In this document: in pieces, positions 465 to 7,551 of the stretch | Numbering within the stretch: the first letter of the stretch is position 1 | Layout: each line of letters opens with the position of its first letter | Assembly (NCBI GenBank): GCA_028877195.1 | Contig: JAPPIL010000181.1 | Coordinates: forward strand, 1-13,691 | Length of the DNA stretch: 13,691 nt | Source: Pseudomonadota bacterium | Lineage (GTDB): Bacteria; Bdellovibrionota_B; Oligoflexia; Oligoflexales; JAPPIL01 | Direction: 5' to 3' | Program-made: the position numbers and the translations under genes | The notes under the pieces: generated by a model | Database searches by the model: none | Seen by the model: the letters and a program-made list of their open reading frames with translations, nothing else | What the model was told of the DNA's origin: nothing

Positions 465-577
465 AAATGTTTATTTTGGCATAGTCGCAAATATCCAGCT
501 GCCCAGCTTAAATTTAAAAGAAGGGTCGATGATAAAAACTAAATGTTTATTTCAGCAAGGTCGCAAATCTGCGGTGG
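465..577. repeat. Imperfect 29-bp direct repeat (TAAATGTTTATTTyrGCAwrGTCGCAAAT), two copies 73 bp apart. The second copy (540-568) is the last 9 codons plus stop of the ATPase gene. The first copy (467-495) lies just downstream of it.
   Basis: Direct comparison of 467-505 with 540-577 shows about 25 of 29 identical positions, after which the two sequences diverge. Confidence 0.5.
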
Positions 578-1399
578 ATCGCCGCGCTGAAGGATAAGGG
601 CATGCACCGAATCGCCGAGCATTTCTGGTTGAAATGAACTCGTGTATAAGGACAGCAGAAACCTTATCCTTGCCTGCACTTGGCGGCTCGATTCGGCATG
701 TAGGGTTGTTAACAAGCCGAGATGACCAATGGTCATAGCTTTGACAAAGGCGATAATTTCTTGCCCACGGATTTCTCCGATAACGAAACGATCGGGGCGC
801 AGACGCAATATTTCTTCAATCAACACTTCCATACTTGTATCACCCTGTGTTTGGCAACGCATCCACAGCGATGACATAAGCGGCAACTCAACGATAGATT
901 CAAGAATTGCCAGCCGCTCCTGTTGACACACTGCACGCAGTAGCGAAGCGAGAAAGGTTGTCTTGCCACTAGACGTTGAGCCGCAGACCAGCAAAGGTTT
1001 GTAGCCACGCACATGTGTCAGACAGTCGTCGCAAAGATTGTGCGGGTCGTTAAAATCAGCTAAGGTCAAGGCAGTAAACTCGTGTCGTCGCAGCGACACT
1101 ACTGCGCCATCGATTGCCACAGGTGGAATCAGGCAGTGCCAACGGACGTTATGTTCGTGTAGATAGCCACCACTGTATGGTTTGAGCGGGTCAAGGCGAA
1201 CTCCTTGCGAGAAGGAAAAATCCTGTAGCCAATGCACCATCTCCTGTTCGTTGGCGAAGATGGAGGGCAGGACTTTGCGTTTACCAGCAGTGTAGACGAC
1301 AACTGAACGGGTGCTGTTAATTAAAACTTCGTCAGTCGTGCGATCGGAGAAAAAGCGGTCGATGATGTCAGTAATATCAGCGCTGCTAATTGCGGAACC
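539..1399 (-). CDS. CpaF/TadA/VirB11-family (type II/IV secretion-type) ATPase, unusually small (about 287 aa if the whole open frame is used). The first ATG is at 1240, but the conserved N-terminal region is encoded upstream of it, out to 1399, with no canonical start codon.
   Basis: Walker A is GSTSSGKTT. The Walker B/His-box region is RPDRFVIGEIRGQE...TIGHLGLLTTLHAES. The Asp-box-like region is RLAILESIVEL. The upstream in-frame segment ...TDEVLINSTRSVVVYTAGKRKVLPSIFANEQEM matches the CpaF N-domain pattern (I.vNG...v.vER.GK...V...F.DE..L). The frame stays open to 1399 and contains only ATT/ATC/CTG as possible starts. Confidence 0.65.
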   Translation of the reverse strand, partial: GSAISSADITDIIDRFFSDRTTDEVLINSTRSVVVYTAGKRKVLPSIFANEQEMVHWLQDFSFSQGVRLDPLKPYSGGYLHEHNVRWHCLIPPVAIDGAVVSLRRHEFTALTLADFNDPHNLCDDCLTHVRGYKPLLVCGSTSSGKTTFLASLLRAVCQQERLAILESIVELPLMSSLWMRCQTQGDTSMEVLIEEILRLRPDRFVIGEIRGQEIIAFVKAMTIGHLGLLTTLHAESSRQVQARIRFLLSLYTSSFQPEMLGDSVHALILQRGDPPQICDLAEINI

Positions 1400-1934: not shown

Positions 1935-2921
1935 ATGATCGACCAGCTCATAGCATCAGACAACACAACCAGTCGTATTGAAGATACGTTGAGCCTTCCA
2001 ATCGCTAAAATCACTCCGATGGGTGGTGATGGATCGGAACGAAGTTTCCAACGCATTCATACGCGGGAGAAGACCTTCGTCTACATGCTGCTGCCTGCCA
2101 ACGAAGCCAAGCAAGTGCATGATGGCACATACGATTGGCTAGCGGTCGCGGCAACTCTAACGGCTGCTGGCATCAACTGCCCTAATGTCGTTGCTACGGT
2201 TGAAGATGGACTGATCATTGAAGATGGTGGCGATTACACCCTTAACCGCAAGCTCAACAACAAGAATCGCAATGAGCTTTTTGCCCACTGCTTTGCGGTC
2301 GCAAAACAAATGCTGACTATACCTCAATACCCACAACAAGTTTGGTGTCAGCGACGCTATGATTCACAAACATATTTGCGTGAGTTTAAATTTTTCCAAA
2401 AGATGTATCTTGAACGTTTCCTTAAGCTCACACCAACTATGCATGATCGTCTTACCCATGACTTCCATGCGATTAGCAACTACCTTGCGCAATTTTCAAA
2501 ACACTTTGTCCATCGCGACTACCATTCCCGCAATATCATGGTTTGCGACGATGATATTATGTTGCTTGATTTTCAAGATGCTATCATCGGTTCACACTTC
2601 TATGACCCTCTATCGCTATGCTTTGACAGCTACACGCATCTTGCCCCAGAAGTTCGTATGGGTTTGTTCATGAGCTACTGCGCCTCATTACAGCAGGAAT
2701 ACCCTAACCTTGATATGCATCACTGGAAGCCCCTACTCATTCAACGTCAACTGAAGGCGATCGGCTCATTTGCACGCTTGACTATCGACGCAAAGAAGGG
2801 CAACTACCTGCGCTATGTGCAGCCAGCAATTGCCTGCTTGCCGCGTCAACAGCTGATCGACGAGCGTTGGAGCTATGTGTCCGACACATTGCTGACCCAA
2901 ATCGCAAATAGCGTCAAGTAA
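1935..2921 (+). CDS. Protein-kinase-like-fold phosphotransferase of the APH / choline-kinase family (AmgK-like sugar/small-molecule kinase). The only plus-strand gene in the window.
   Basis: A Brenner-type catalytic motif HRDYHSRNIMV is followed by the metal-binding DFQDA. The N-terminal ITPMGGDGSERSFQRI resembles the nucleotide-positioning loop of APH/ChoK/AmgK-type kinases. Length is 328 aa. The ORF is clean. Confidence 0.65.
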   Translation: MIDQLIASDNTTSRIEDTLSLPIAKITPMGGDGSERSFQRIHTREKTFVYMLLPANEAKQVHDGTYDWLAVAATLTAAGINCPNVVATVEDGLIIEDGGDYTLNRKLNNKNRNELFAHCFAVAKQMLTIPQYPQQVWCQRRYDSQTYLREFKFFQKMYLERFLKLTPTMHDRLTHDFHAISNYLAQFSKHFVHRDYHSRNIMVCDDDIMLLDFQDAIIGSHFYDPLSLCFDSYTHLAPEVRMGLFMSYCASLQQEYPNLDMHHWKPLLIQRQLKAIGSFARLTIDAKKGNYLRYVQPAIACLPRQQLIDERWSYVSDTLLTQIANSVK

Positions 2922-2983
2922 GATTGATACCTTAACGGCATTTCTATCCATATAACTTCAAAAATTACAAAGCTTAAAAACAG

Positions 2984-4363
2984 CTATGCGACAGTGCGTT
3001 TCGTGCGGCAGAGGAACATAGCAAGCAACAGTAGCAGTGCGATGAGCGGGTATTTGAGGAGCATAACCATCGCTAACGGCAAGAGTAGCAACGCTTGCGC
3101 CAACACTTTCAACAGCGCATTACTACTGATGTGTGTCGCTAACGCAGGGGAATGCTCGTAGTATAGGGCAACGAGCTTGCGCCCGCTAGCGTAGGGCAAC
3201 AAGAAACGATCGCGAAACCAGCGCAACTGTTTAACGATAACTGCATCTGACCCATAGGCAGCGGTGGCGATAAAACAATGGAGGTCATGCCGTTTAGCTT
3301 CACCCAAATCGTTGAGTTCCAACAGTGTTTTGTTTTCAATCGCCGCAGCCTCCATGCACACACTGCGAGCGATGCCGTCAGGGTAATGCTGTAGCATAAT
3401 CTGATAGACGACACCAGGCTTGAGGTCAGGTATTGAATCGCTACGTCCCGATAGCAGGGTTGAATTCGACAAGGCAGGAATCTTGCCAACCTCATCATAA
3501 GCAAGATAAACATTAGGTGTTGGGCAAGAGATGCTACAGTCTGGCAACCATTGACATTCAGCATCAGCTGGCAAGTCGGTATCCCCACCAGCAGCGACAG
3601 GTCTGAATACTTTGGCAATCGAGACAAGCGACACGGGTTCGGTGCTTTTCGCCAGCACATAGGCAACGACCCCACGCACAGGCTGTTTGCCCTGCGAGTT
3701 TGTGAATTCAACGACATTCTCCCGCTGCATTTCAACCTGCAAACGATGATGTAAAGCCGTTACCCCCGTTAACTTCGGCGCAACACTAGGGACACCATCA
3801 ATGCGAATGAACTCATGCGTTATCGCTGCCAACAGCCCACCATAAGAATCTACCCCCCAGACACGATACGCAATTCTAACCTTAAGCTTACCGCTATCAT
3901 CATAGAGAGCATTTAAGTTATCCTCGTAAGCCCTAATCGCAATCTCATAATAAACCGTCGTATTGCCATTGATATTAGGCTCTTCCTCCACCTCGCGATC
4001 GACAGGCACAAAGTAGTAGTCTCGATGGTGGCTAACATTTGGCGTTGAGTCCTGTTCATTCGCATGTTCTCTCGCCTGCACTGGCGATTCATAATGCGGC
4101 AATGGTAATTCACGACTGTCGGCATCACTGTCAGGCAACGTTACCCATAACCTTGCCCAGATATTTTCCTCGCCATCCTTGAGGGCAACATCACTCGGTA
4201 GGATGTCATCAATCGTGAAGCGAACCGTCAGTTGCCTAGTATCCTGCTGACGAGGCAAGCTGACATCGCTAACGCTAATCTTAATATCGGCGTATACTTG
4301 AAGAGAGAAAAGCGCGGTGGCAAGGCTTGGCAACAGTCGGTTAAATGGTAATCTCCAATCCAT
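2984..4363 (-). CDS. Secreted or surface protein, 459 aa. It has a cleavable N-terminal signal peptide (cleavage after ...LQVYA) and a C-terminal tripartite sorting-signal-like domain: CFIATAAYGS motif (3248..3277), a conserved LRWFRDRFLL...YY..SP segment, a hydrophobic helix and the basic tail CRTKRTVA.
   Basis: The N-terminus MDWRLPFNRLLPSLATALFSLQVYA-DIK is a typical Sec signal. The C-terminus CFIATAAYGSDAVIVKQLRWFRDRFLLPYASGRKLVALYYEHSPALATHI...YPLIALLLLLAMFLCRTKRTVA matches the architecture I recall for CFI-box-type C-terminal putative sorting domains. The central about 330 aa are acidic, with a Cys cluster (AECQWLPDCSISCPTP), and have no family I recognise. Confidence 0.7.
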   Translation of the reverse strand: MDWRLPFNRLLPSLATALFSLQVYADIKISVSDVSLPRQQDTRQLTVRFTIDDILPSDVALKDGEENIWARLWVTLPDSDADSRELPLPHYESPVQAREHANEQDSTPNVSHHRDYYFVPVDREVEEEPNINGNTTVYYEIAIRAYEDNLNALYDDSGKLKVRIAYRVWGVDSYGGLLAAITHEFIRIDGVPSVAPKLTGVTALHHRLQVEMQRENVVEFTNSQGKQPVRGVVAYVLAKSTEPVSLVSIAKVFRPVAAGGDTDLPADAECQWLPDCSISCPTPNVYLAYDEVGKIPALSNSTLLSGRSDSIPDLKPGVVYQIMLQHYPDGIARSVCMEAAAIENKTLLELNDLGEAKRHDLHCFIATAAYGSDAVIVKQLRWFRDRFLLPYASGRKLVALYYEHSPALATHISSNALLKVLAQALLLLPLAMVMLLKYPLIALLLLLAMFLCRTKRTVA

Positions 4364-5276
4364 CGTAACCAGCTAATACTCGCAAAGAAGAGTTATGTCC
4401 ATTGCTAGCCGCAATTTTATCAGCATAGGTAACCGCATCCTCACATTTGCGATGAATATCGCTGTCAACAGCATCAGGTGAATGATGCACCAGCACTATG
4501 TTAGAGATATTCTCACGGAACGCAAGATCAATACCACGCGCAGGGCTGGAATGTCCCCAATCATAGTGTTTCTCTAATTCGTGCGGTTCATAGTGGCTGT
4601 CAAAGATGAGATAATCAAGGTTTTGATAGCAGACCAAGTCCTTCCCCAATTCTTCGGGGGTGCTGCGATCGAGTTTAGTGTCTAATGCCACTGCCACCGA
4701 CTTGCCATCGACATCAAAGCGATAGCCGTAGGCATGCCCAGGATGATCAAGTGTAAATGGAGTTATCGCCACGCCATCCACCTCTACTAGGGTGCGGGTG
4801 GCAAGCTGATGAAAGTTTATCTCTGCTTCAATATTTTGCCATAGCACGGGGAAGTTTATGCCATTGAAGAGCAGTTCCAGATGCTTGGCGGCGTAGCTAT
4901 GGACATGATAAATATCCACCACCGAACCATGCTCATACAAGGGTGAGAAAAAGGGCAAGCCGATGACATGATCCCAATGCAGGTGCGTTAAGAAAACCTT
5001 ATGATGCCTAGACCTCTCGCCAATTTGACGGCCGTAGTCCACCAACCCAGTGCCGAGATCAATGATAAAACTACCGCTATTGTGCTTGATTTCAATACAA
5101 GTGGTATTGCCACCATAGGTAAGTGGTCTTGCCAGCCCCTTGAGGGTCGCACGCAGTTTATCGGTATCGTTGGTTAGCTGCTCGTTTTGTGCAAGACCAA
5201 CCAACATTTCAACTAAAGAGTCATGTGATACTGAACGTGGGCTTGAGCCGCGTGTGCCCCAGAATTTTAACTTCAT
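4341..5276 (-). CDS. MBL-fold metallo-hydrolase (metallo-beta-lactamase superfamily, PhnP/RNase Z-like subgroup), 311 aa.
   Basis: The zinc-binding signature HLHWDH (HxHxDH) is present. The N-terminal MKLKFWGTRGSSP is typical of this subgroup. Further His/Asp ligands sit at DHPGHAYGY and VLVHHSPD. The 3' end overlaps the start of the next gene by 23 nt. Confidence 0.75.
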   Translation of the reverse strand: MKLKFWGTRGSSPRSVSHDSLVEMLVGLAQNEQLTNDTDKLRATLKGLARPLTYGGNTTCIEIKHNSGSFIIDLGTGLVDYGRQIGERSRHHKVFLTHLHWDHVIGLPFFSPLYEHGSVVDIYHVHSYAAKHLELLFNGINFPVLWQNIEAEINFHQLATRTLVEVDGVAITPFTLDHPGHAYGYRFDVDGKSVAVALDTKLDRSTPEELGKDLVCYQNLDYLIFDSHYEPHELEKHYDWGHSSPARGIDLAFRENISNIVLVHHSPDAVDSDIHRKCEDAVTYADKIAASNGHNSSLRVLAGYDGLEITI

Positions 5277-5332
5277 ACTGTTTAGTTTAGCATCTCGCAG
5301 CTATCACTCCCTAGATGGAAATCAGAGAGACA

Positions 5333-6286
5333 CTAAAAAAGCTGATGTTTGCCGAGACTCAAGATAAATTTCTTCGGATTGGTGGGACGACCGTTGACCC
5401 AAACCTCATAATGAAGATGAGCACCAGTTGATCGCCCTGTTGAGCCAACAGTGGCTATTTGGTCGCCGCGAGCAATTCTTTGCCCTACAACAACTAGGTT
5501 GTGAGCGTTATGTCCGTAACGCGTTACTACTCCATGCCCATGTGCAATCATAATGAAATTGCCGAAGCCTTCTTTTGTGCCTGAAAAAATTACCACTCCA
5601 TCTGCAGGGGCATAGATGGGTTTACCTACCGATGTCGCAATGTCAATGCCATAGTGTTTCTGGCGCTTGCCCGTGAACGGTGAGGTGCGATAACCAAACC
5701 CACTGCTTACCCAGCCATCAACTGGCGAAATCGCAGGGATAGACGATAACAGCGAGCGTTTCTTGCCTAATCGTGATAGGAGGCGCTGCATATCAAAAAT
5801 ATTTTGATGCGCACTATTCTCGATTTCAGTCAGTTTGCTGAAGAGATCGCTATGCACCATATCGCTAATCTTAACACCGTCAAAAATCGCACTGCTGTCA
5901 AGCGTAGCGCTCTTTTTGAACTCTTCATACTCGTCTTCGGTCAATGCCCCAATGCCAAGATGCTTTCTGGCTTTTTTGTTATTCAAGTGCATCAAATCAT
6001 TAAGCTGATCGGTGTAGCTCCCAACCACCCGTAAACTTTGCTTGACTTCACCAAGTCTCTCATTCAAAATCCGCACCTCGGCCTGCAGACTGTGGTGCTC
6101 GACTTTTAGTTTGCTAAACCCCCTGACCTCATCATGCATCTTGATATAGTCAAGTGCGAAAAAGACCGCAGCAAACAGCACCGCCAAACCCAACAGCGCC
6201 GCAAGCCTAAGCACCAACTGCGGCATCGCGAACGACCGCGTCATATCCGTTCCGTCTGGTATCAACACTAGCGTAATTTTCTTCAA
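5333..6286 (-). CDS. Membrane-anchored M23-family (LytM-domain) metallo-endopeptidase with an intact catalytic site, 317 aa.
   Basis: The N-terminal TM helix is LVLRLAALLGLAVLFAAVFFAL. It is followed by a coiled-coil-like charged region. The C-terminal M23 domain has HxxxD (HYGIDIA) and HxH (AHLHYEV) zinc ligands plus a G-rich core GFGNFIMIAHGHGVVTRYGHN. The TTG start at 6286 has AGGAAT 9 nt upstream. Confidence 0.8.
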   Translation of the reverse strand: MKKITLVLIPDGTDMTRSFAMPQLVLRLAALLGLAVLFAAVFFALDYIKMHDEVRGFSKLKVEHHSLQAEVRILNERLGEVKQSLRVVGSYTDQLNDLMHLNNKKARKHLGIGALTEDEYEEFKKSATLDSSAIFDGVKISDMVHSDLFSKLTEIENSAHQNIFDMQRLLSRLGKKRSLLSSIPAISPVDGWVSSGFGYRTSPFTGKRQKHYGIDIATSVGKPIYAPADGVVIFSGTKEGFGNFIMIAHGHGVVTRYGHNAHNLVVVGQRIARGDQIATVGSTGRSTGAHLHYEVWVNGRPTNPKKFILSLGKHQLF

Positions 6287-6289
6287 GGA

Positions 6290-6420
6290 TTAGATTCCTA
6301 ATTAAAATTAAATTTCTAATTAAATTTCTAATTAAATTTCTAATTAAATTTCTAATTAAAGTTCTAATTAAAGTTCTAATTAAAGTTCTAATTAAAGTTC
6401 TAATTAAAGTTCTAAATCAT
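6290..6420. repeat. AT-rich 12-bp tandem repeat array. Three copies of TTCTAATTAAAT (6314-6349) are followed by five copies of TTCTAATTAAAG (6350-6409), with degenerate copies flanking both sides. It abuts the M23 peptidase start codon.
   Basis: Direct reading shows a perfect 12-nt periodicity over about 96 bp and decaying copies at each end. It is located at -4 to about -135 relative to the M23 peptidase start at 6286. Confidence 0.9.
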
Positions 6421-6427
6421 GTGGTTT

Positions 6428-6733
6428 AATAAAAATTACTTGCCATATACGACCACACAGAGGGACTGTTTGTCGCAGGGGGAAGTATCCCCCGTGCACC
6501 CCCTCCTTAAAAAACTTGCTGATTTTATCGTTGCTCATAAGCATAAATCTACTTGTCTTAAAAATTACCTGCCACATACAACCACACAGAGGGACTGTTT
6601 GTCGCAGGGGGAAGTATCCCCCGTGCACCCCTCCTTAAAAAACTTGCTGATTTTATTGTTGCTCATAAACATAAATCTACTTGTCTTAAAAATTACTTGC
6701 CATATACGACTACACAGAGGCTGCCTATCCTTC
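6428..6733. repeat. Tandem direct repeat of a 129/128-bp unit, 2 full copies plus a roughly 35-bp partial third copy. Each unit contains a GC-rich stem-loop GCAGGGGGAAGTATCCCCCGTGC (first copy 6475..6497).
   Basis: The unit start AAAAATTAC occurs at 6431, 6560 and 6688. The copies are more than 95% identical, with a few substitutions and a 1-bp deletion in copy 2. An inner 5-bp G/C stem has a 6-nt loop and is flanked by the complementary GAGGG...CCCTC. Confidence 0.85.
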
Positions 6734-6783
6734 CTGTGTCTTCCTCGGCAAGCATGCCGAAAACATAAGTAAACTATGCTTTG

Positions 6784-7551
6784 CTATTTGGCTGCAACCA
6801 CAACGATAGTGATATTATCCTTTCCGTCTCGCTCATTAGCAAGGTCAACCAAACTTTCGACTGCTTTGAGTCTCTCCTTGCTCACACATAGAGAAATCTC
6901 TGCATCGCTAATCATGCCATGCAATCCATCTGATGATAAAACATACATATCACCAACCTCAACCCCAACGACGTGAGTATCAACATCTTCCTCCTCTTGG
7001 CAACCGACACTACGAGTTATGATGTTGCTAGCGACAGCCTTGTCCTCCCCGCTATGGGACTCTTTCCCGTGCCGCTGTTGATATTCATTAGCAAGGGAGT
7101 GGTCATTGGTAAGTTGATAAATAAAACGACTACGCACCAGATACACCCGACTGTCGCCAACATGGGCGATATATGCCTTGCTATTGATGAACAGTAGCAA
7201 CGACACGGTCGTTCCCATGCCGCTCAACTTTGGTTCTTCCAATGCCCGCTCGTAGATTTTGGTCGAAGCGAGGTTAACCGCAGTGCGGAGAATTTCAAAT
7301 ACATGCCCATCGATGCTTGTGCCGATGATTTTGTCTTTGCCAAGTTGACGTATTCTGTCAACGACATAGCCAGACACTATTTCAACGCACATACTACTCG
7401 CTACTTCACCGCCAGCATGACCACCCATGCCATCAGCTACGATGTAAAGCCGAGTGTTGCCGTCGATGAGGTAGGTGTCTTGATTGGAGTTTCTAACTTG
7501 ACCTATATCGGTCAGACCTCTCGCATCTATACGCATCAGTTGCTTGATCAA
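6784..7551 (-). CDS. PP2C-family Ser/Thr protein phosphatase (Stp1/PrpC-like), 255 aa.
   Basis: PP2C motifs appear in order: LTDIGQVRNSNQD, ADGMGGHAGGEVAS, SGMGTT, VGDSRVYL, SSDGL and DNITIVVV. Confidence 0.8.
   Translation of the reverse strand: MIKQLMRIDARGLTDIGQVRNSNQDTYLIDGNTRLYIVADGMGGHAGGEVASSMCVEIVSGYVVDRIRQLGKDKIIGTSIDGHVFEILRTAVNLASTKIYERALEEPKLSGMGTTVSLLLFINSKAYIAHVGDSRVYLVRSRFIYQLTNDHSLANEYQQRHGKESHSGEDKAVASNIITRSVGCQEEEDVDTHVVGVEVGDMYVLSSDGLHGMISDAEISLCVSKERLKAVESLVDLANERDGKDNITIVVVAAK

Follow-up and report, generated by a model that had tools for sequence, protein, structure and literature searches.

The stretch of DNA considered here (contig JAPPIL010000181.1, 13.7 kb in full and referred to as the window) carries three consecutive open reading frames (ORFs) on the minus strand, at 5333-6286 (317 aa), 4341-5276 (311 aa) and 2984-4363 (459 aa). 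GenBank annotates their products as an M23 family metallopeptidase (MDE3269752.1), an MBL (metallo-beta-lactamase) fold metallo-hydrolase (MDE3269751.1) and a "hypothetical protein" (MDE3269750.1), the last being identical to the 459-aa protein that we call the cargo. A gap of 56 nt (5277-5332) separates the M23 and MBL genes, and the MBL and cargo genes overlap by 23 nt (4341-4363). A preliminary description of the locus, which gave the same spacing, had proposed that the three genes form a sorting or processing system, in which the peptidase and the hydrolase serve a tag at the C-terminus of the cargo. We found instead that the conserved unit is a two-gene pair of MBL and cargo, and that this pair is restricted to a lineage clustering with metagenome-assembled genomes (MAGs) of the Oligoflexales (Bdellovibrionota).

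The cargo gene (2984-4363, minus strand, as are all parts named below) encodes an exported protein by all appearances. Its N-terminus, MDWRLPFNRLLPSLATALFSLQVYA/DIK, resembles a signal peptide, and a Sec signal peptide is predicted for aa 1-25 (4289-4363), with cleavage after VYA. The following ectodomain (aa 26-355; 3299-4288) is predicted to consist of two beta-sandwich domains, the second FN3-like. As expected from the preliminary description, the central ~330 aa did not match any Pfam or NCBIfam model. The C-terminal region, in contrast, is not novel. The profile search that had been recommended for it returned the NCBIfam model NF041770 (CFI_box_CTERM) with 71.2 bits (cutoff 40, E = 4.5e-20) for aa 363-426 (3086-3277), covering model positions 1-65 of 69. 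Hence, the motif class is already represented by a curated model, and the match supports the earlier view of the last gene product as an exported protein with a recognised C-terminal domain of the anchor or sorting type. The elements of the signature are CFIATAAYGS (aa 363-372), LRWFRDRFLL (380-389) and YYEHSP (401-406), and the domain is predicted to be helical, with helices at 374-388, 392-414 and 416-437 in a structure model. A hydrophobic stretch (440-451) and the basic tail CRTKRTVA (452-459) end the protein (together 2987-3046). The tripartite layout of a sorting signal was thus described correctly in its parts, since a signal-like N-terminus, motif, helix and basic tail are all present. 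However, CFIATAAYGS lies 97 aa from the C-terminus and ~77 aa ahead of the terminal hydrophobic helix, and the motif is not adjacent to the helix as that layout implies.

A profile search with the cargo family returned 239 representatives at E<=1e-30, all of them full-length relatives of 410-500 aa. In a set of 159 family proteins, 153 bear the motif; an N-terminal hydrophobic segment was seen in 131 of these, a transmembrane (TM)-like C-terminal segment in 96, and at least two K/R among the last 12 residues in 121. The orthologue at locus L171 lacks both the TM helix and the tail. The distance from the motif to the end has a median of 105 aa in this family. Four cysteines are invariant, namely C270, C280 and C336 in the ectodomain and C363 of the CFI-box itself. 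The Cys 27 residues ahead of the CFI Cys is kept in 134 of 155 members. The cargo is likely to contain disulfides, including a family-specific C336-C363 bond. Taken together, the cargo is an unannotated member of the curated domain family NF041770 and carries an undescribed family of passenger domains.

One divergent family member, P0013 (loci L007/L008), stands in a context of its own. Genes for a FabA-like protein, an ACP-like protein (83 aa) and a 4'-phosphopantetheinyl transferase (ACPS) precede it, the last of which is overlapped by the P0013 gene by 23 nt (L007 5422-10222). A 248-aa protein without a Pfam match abuts the stop codon of P0013 in L007.

The MBL hydrolase (4341-5276, minus strand) belongs to Pfam PF12706 (Lactamase_B_2), with 53.3 bits against a gathering threshold of 27. 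Its metal-ligand set, HLHWDH (98-103), H178, D199, H242 and H264/H265, is invariant in 21 homologues. The same holds for W6, G7, R9, G10 and S11 of the N-terminus, MKLKFWGTRGS. Since this invariant strand is part of the catalytic domain, there is no room for a signal peptide, and indeed the protein has neither a signal peptide nor a TM helix. Its fold resembles the phosphodiesterases RNase Z, PhnP and PDE1, with RNase Z as the best structural match. The scores against the equivalog models stay well below the cutoffs, both for RNase Z (TIGR02651, 55.8; cutoff 292.95) and for PhnP (TIGR03307, 35.4; cutoff 272.25). Therefore, the protein is a member of PF12706, but not an RNase Z or PhnP equivalog, and its relation to these enzymes is at fold level only. 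Compared with RNase Z (ElaC/ZipD), PhnP and class II PDE1 it differs by the family-specific N-terminal WGTRGS and a helical insert (aa 18-46). Two models of cyclic-nucleotide phosphodiesterases, NF041851 and Pfam Anti-Pycsar_Apyc1, were matched weakly as well. By its fold class the MBL is a binuclear-metal hydrolase of the RNase Z/PhnP/PDE1 phosphodiesterase branch, with a predicted cytoplasmic location.

We compared the neighbourhoods of both genes, with co-occurrence assessed as adjacency within 5-10 kb of the loci. A cargo homologue lies directly downstream of the MBL gene and on the same strand in all 15 testable loci, the window included (the others are L090, L174, L001, L004, L005, L010-L013, L015, L016 and L171-L173). 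Seen from the other side, in L001, L004, L005, L090 and L174 the gene that immediately precedes the cargo homologue (22-70% identity), in the same orientation, belongs to Lactamase_B_2. A scan seeded with the MBL, in which each GTDB species was represented by a single genome, gave 80 loci. Of the seven best-matching ones (41-45% identity), L016 bears the bare label "bacterium" and the rest are assigned to Oligoflexales, Oligoflexaceae or Oligoflexus. A CFI-box gene follows immediately downstream in six of the seven, and the contig of the remaining one stops short of the informative region. No CFI-box gene accompanies the other 73 MBLs (28-36% identity), which come from many phyla. Three additional metagenomic MBLs (40-49% identity) are each followed by a member of the cargo family. 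In a neighbour-joining tree of 88 MBLs, all pair-bearing loci fall into one clade, with the cargo gene present in 14 of 14 testable members and in none of the 73 members of the sister clade. L174 is outside this tree and was counted as the fifteenth pair.

The spacing within the pair ranges from the 23-nt overlap, which is shared by the window, L090 and L174, to a gap of ~200 nt. Identity among the pair loci drops to ~41% for the MBL and to 22-28% for the cargo. In ten loci (L001, L004, L005, L011-L013, L016 and L171-L173) rpsP-(rimM)-trmD is located divergently upstream of the MBL gene. The flanks of the window, L090 and L174 differ from those of the other pair loci and are devoid of rpsP-(rimM)-trmD, and the genes downstream of the cargo gene vary widely throughout. 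That the pair is kept despite rearranged flanks and such low cargo identity points to co-expression or to some indirect functional link. The contig is labelled "Pseudomonadota bacterium" in GenBank, and the taxon-labelled relatives of its MBL and cargo come from Oligoflexales, Oligoflexaceae and Oligoflexus MAGs. Judged from the MBL tree, the MAG probably belongs to an Oligoflexales-type lineage and the label is likely to be too coarse or wrong.

The association does not extend to other proteins with the same tag. Among 80 metagenomic CFI-box loci with other passengers, of which 41 offer at least 1.2 kb of upstream sequence, neither an MBL of the window family nor the N-terminal domain of the cargo was found. 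Three more CFI-box loci (P0016, P0014 and the divergent P0013) likewise have no such MBL. Because the MBL is absent beside CFI-box proteins with other passengers, it is tied to one passenger family and not to the tag. The MBL gene is a constant neighbour of this cargo family, but not of the motif class, and within the distances considered neither the MBL nor the M23 gene tracks the motif.

The M23 gene (5333-6286, minus strand) is outside the conserved unit. Its product matched Pfam PF01551 with 117.8 bits (threshold 28.7), the catalytic motifs HYGID (aa 211-215) and HLH (aa 290-292) are intact, and a hydrophobic helix is found near the N-terminus (aa 24-45). In this respect the preliminary description of a TM-anchored peptidase with intact catalytic residues was accurate. 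The best NCBIfam match, MepM (NF008652, 112.4 bits), covers the M23 domain only and does not reach its cutoff of 341. Scores for ShyC (103 bits) and ShyA (93 bits) are lower still, and since all three are below their equivalog cutoffs (341-700) we consider the protein a generic family member. It has the same layout as MepM/ShyA-type M23 (LytM) DD-endopeptidases, with a TM helix at the N-terminus, then a coiled coil, and at the C-terminus the M23 domain bearing HxxxD and HxH. A phmmer search with the M23 protein gave no match in the 14 other MBL-cargo loci, including L090 and L174 with their ~80% identical MBLs, and none in the 80 CFI-box loci. This absence marks it as a chance neighbour. The M23 protein is an ordinary MepM/ShyA-like cell-wall endopeptidase that is encoded upstream by chance in this one genome, and its proposed role as a module partner comes down to mere adjacency.

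The CFI-box itself is widespread. When the cargo-family profile was run against 1.84 billion representative proteins (50% clustering), 27,094 matches passed a limit of E<=1e-3 and 17,855 one of E<=1e-10, the majority covering just the CFI-box. The 80 metagenomic loci, for which the CFI-box served as the only query, encode proteins of 120-2773 aa with the tag at their end. Passengers in ten sampled proteins include S8 subtilase, PKD, Calx-beta, beta-propeller, TIG, fn3, InlB B-repeat and M6 peptidase domains, and named sources are Thermosulfurimonas, Desulfuromonas, Omnitrophota, Aminicenantes, Vulcanimicrobiota and a haloarchaeon. Outside the cargo family the motif Cys is usually a lone Cys behind a Gly-rich linker, and the motif-to-end distance has a median of 85 aa. 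A conserved domain of ~50 aa, predicted to be helical, separates the motif from the terminal helix. A profile of the CFI-box found no match among PDB sequences, and in the literature searched we came across no mention of the domain, its signature or NF041770. This is consistent with the statement in the preliminary description that no processing enzyme is known to be tied to the motif class.

On long contigs the domain also occurs as stand-alone mini-proteins of 83-149 aa (P0312, P0296, P0317, P0351 and P0375). Some of them begin with MCFIATAAYG or MKCFIATAAYGS, and several are without a terminal TM helix. A mini-protein from Natronorubrum has nothing but the domain behind a Tat-like signal peptide. 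Up to four successive genes ending in a CFI-box form tandem arrays on the metagenomic contigs L150 and L159 (arrays are also present on L103, L142 and L163). Clustering of the neighbouring genes, which was based on greedy non-overlapping gene calls, revealed no recurrent neighbour that could be a candidate sortase beyond synteny blocks among closely related contigs. A UPF0173-type MBL close to CFI-box genes in six related loci was judged to reflect shared ancestry and not association. The stand-alone copies argue for the CFI-box as an autonomous domain and not only a cleaved signal. We conclude that it is a generic autonomous C-terminal anchor module, carried by secreted proteins of many sorts in both bacteria and archaea; given the diversity of the passengers, the original view of the tag as a generic module of the anchor or sorting type was sound.

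MBLs of the sister clade have a different and rather uniform context. They are usually encoded between an upstream STAS-domain gene and a downstream gene for a CHASE2-SpoIIE (PP2C) membrane phosphatase. Both partners are present in ~47 of the 73 loci (L017-L089; e.g. L049 6958-9072 and L073 5578-5967), and in 17-22 loci CHASE2-SpoIIE occupies the downstream slot on the same strand. OmpA-like and FecR-like genes are found nearby on the opposite strand. This arrangement, seen in Proteobacteria and other phyla, looks like an operon of the partner-switching type in which an MBL hydrolase gene takes the central place. In the literature searched we came across no account of it; one candidate, PMC7444824, concerns a different SpoIIE protein and was set aside. 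The STAS/CHASE2-SpoIIE context suggests that the MBL family may consist of signalling-associated hydrolases, possibly acting as signalling output enzymes. In the window, a gene for a 255-aa PP2C-type Ser/Thr phosphatase (6784-7551, minus strand) is located two genes upstream of the MBL and on the same strand. We rejected it as a counterpart of the SpoIIE/PP2C partners, since no PP2C gene occurs in any other Oligoflexales-type locus, and treat its proximity as a coincidence.

The reading that we favour, with moderate confidence, is that of a two-gene pair of an MBL phosphodiesterase and a membrane-tethered, FN3-like CFI-box protein, which is not a sorting machine and whose members are most likely connected by co-regulation or an indirect link, with the M23 gene being incidental. 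The upstream gene of the pair would provide a cytoplasmic hydrolase of the phosphodiesterase type. The cargo would be exported by Sec, fold into two beta-sandwich domains (the second FN3-like) that are probably stabilised by disulfides, and be tethered to the cytoplasmic membrane, on its outer side, by the helical CFI-box domain, the hydrophobic helix and the basic tail. Both genes are probably co-transcribed throughout the Oligoflexales-type lineage of the Bdellovibrionota. Since MBL and cargo are expected in different compartments, the link between them is most likely regulatory or indirect and not that of an enzyme with its substrate. Direct processing of the tag by the MBL appears unlikely for this reason, and also because only ~8 residues of the cargo would be cytoplasmic and the L171 orthologue has no TM helix or tail. 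The proposal that the CFI-box serves as a sorting signal to be cleaved or modified, with MBL and/or M23 as its dedicated processing enzymes in the manner of sortase/LPXTG or exosortase/PEP-CTERM, is in our opinion very improbable. It draws on the fact that many secreted proteins with different kinds of passenger end in the tag, much as they would in a true sorting signal, on the tag's invariant and often isolated Cys, and on an MBL gene that always adjoins this cargo family, with the 23-nt overlap recurring in close relatives. However, the part concerning M23 is already largely refuted by its absence from the 14 other pair loci and the 80 CFI-box loci, and the MBL is missing from those 80 loci and the three further ones, just as CFI-box neighbours are missing from the 73 sister-clade MBLs. 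Moreover, an enzyme with a phosphodiesterase fold and no signal peptide would have to meet a tag that is predicted to be extracytoplasmic, and MBL-fold enzymes are not known to act as protein-sorting transpeptidases or proteases. M23 would be periplasmic and thus share the compartment of the tag, but fails co-occurrence. The motif, in addition, is set back from the C-terminus by 73-127 aa that include a conserved helical domain, and the stand-alone mini-proteins have no passenger to sort.

More difficult to dismiss, although we regard it as rather unlikely, is inherited synteny without any functional coupling: a housekeeping RNA or nucleotide phosphodiesterase beside rpsP-rimM-trmD, with the cargo gene as a long-standing neighbour in a slowly rearranging lineage. 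The maintenance of rpsP-(rimM)-trmD divergently upstream in most pair loci indicates that this lineage tends to keep its local gene order. In several loci the cargo gene is followed by one for an RNase T-type exonuclease, RNase Z is the closest structural relative of the MBL, and intergenic gaps of 155-197 nt in L004 and L172 leave room for separate promoters. Yet, the window, L090 and L174 have wholly different flanks but keep the pair, with overlapping reading frames, the genes behind the cargo gene vary widely, and adjacency in 15 of 15 loci at 22-28% cargo identity exceeds typical synteny decay. A signalling pair, in which the FN3-like CFI-box protein takes the CHASE2-SpoIIE slot as the extracytoplasmic partner that senses for, or localises, the cytoplasmic phosphodiesterase, seems improbable. 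It would explain why the downstream slot holds CHASE2-SpoIIE in 17-22 sister-clade loci and the cargo in every testable Oligoflexales-type member, both being membrane proteins with a large extracytoplasmic domain, and would suit the weak matches of the MBL to cyclic-nucleotide phosphodiesterase models. Against this, the cargo is not homologous to CHASE2, no STAS gene occurs in the flanks of the Oligoflexales-type clade, and with ~8 cytoplasmic residues, and an orthologue in L171 that is free of TM helix and tail, no plausible route for transmembrane signalling is visible. We give an equally low chance to the broader idea of a trans-envelope functional module, derived from or parallel to the STAS-MBL-CHASE2/SpoIIE clusters, whose ectodomain controls, localises or depends on the phosphodiesterase. 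If true, it would be a nucleotide- or RNA-signalling pair of a new, envelope-linked kind and give a first functional handle on the large CFI-box superfamily.

Several points weigh against the two-gene pair with an indirect link that we prefer. The strict 15/15 adjacency across deep divergence argues for a real functional coupling of unspecified nature. Co-occurrence was scored as adjacency, 39 of the 80 metagenomic CFI-box loci have too little upstream sequence for a verdict, and P0013 is a cargo-family member without an MBL upstream. Topology and signal peptide of the cargo were judged by inspection only, and confidence in its structure model is only moderate (pLDDT 62.6; shallow alignment of 11 sequences).

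The remaining features of the window do not bear on the pair directly. The region that separates the PP2C and M23 genes (6290-6780), described previously as repeat-rich and promoter-like, is indeed repeat-rich. It contains the 12-nt tandem repeat AATTAAAGTTCT in 9.2 copies with 98% matches (6306-6415) and a 128-nt direct repeat in 2.3 copies with 93% matches (6430-6720), which includes a GGGGGA...TCCCCC hairpin. Promoter-like sites, however, are no more frequent than in shuffled sequence (7 found, 6.6 expected; scan of 2800-6850), and the same scan revealed no terminator in the gap between the M23 and MBL genes. The 128-nt repeat was found in none of 174 fetched loci and has no Rfam match, and its predicted RNA fold is unremarkable (z = -0.8). 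Scans of the window for PADLOC defence systems, Rfam families and tRNAs were all without a match. The cargo gene is the only CFI-box gene in the window. A 233-aa ORF at 539-1240 (minus strand) matches only positions 103-276 of the 370-position Pfam model T2SSE, which describes type II/IV secretion ATPases, and may encode a short or truncated PilT/GspE-like ATPase.

Dedicated sorting systems such as LPXTG/sortase, PEP-CTERM/exosortase and GlyGly-CTERM/rhombosortase equip unrelated secreted proteins with a tag, along with a hydrophobic helix and basic tail. The CFI-box shares with these signals the conserved C-terminal tag with hydrophobic helix and basic tail, and some contigs carry tandem tagged genes. 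It differs in its geometry, as the motif is located ~85-105 aa from the end compared with ~25-35 aa in LPXTG, PEP-CTERM and GlyGly-CTERM. Also unlike these signals, it occurs in stand-alone and TM-less copies, has no recurrent neighbour gene, and no enzyme was found for it here or in the literature searched. A dedicated sorting system would call for co-occurrence, here assessed by adjacency only, for a shared compartment and for a compact arrangement of motif and helix; the co-occurrence and the geometry are lacking, and the MBL would be in the wrong compartment. The proposed three-gene sorting or processing system is thus not supported on any of these three counts, and what remains conserved of it is MBL and cargo. 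Since the CFI-box is very common (~27,000 representatives) and no mention of it was found in the literature searched, a real lead to a partner enzyme would be valuable. This locus does not offer one, with M23 being incidental and the MBL linked to one passenger family and not to the tag. With other NF041770 proteins the cargo has in common the sequence CFIATAAYGS ... LRxFRD ... YYxxSP, followed by hydrophobic helix and basic tail. It differs from most of them in its own passenger family (~330 aa, ~240 clusters, no curated model) and in the extra Cys 27 residues upstream, and from all others considered here in the specific MBL clade directly upstream in 15 of 15 testable loci.

The closest comparison for the pair as a whole is with the STAS-MBL-CHASE2/SpoIIE clusters. 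Both use the same MBL family (28-36% identity), and both place downstream, on the same strand, a gene for a membrane protein with a large extracytoplasmic domain. In the Oligoflexales-type clade, in contrast, this protein is a CFI-box protein, and neither STAS nor PP2C/SpoIIE genes are present in the flanks. The strictly conserved and so far undescribed MBL-cargo pair of one lineage, and its contrast with the STAS/CHASE2-SpoIIE contexts of related MBLs elsewhere, are therefore the two leads worth keeping; they amount to modest comparative genomics and not to a new system.

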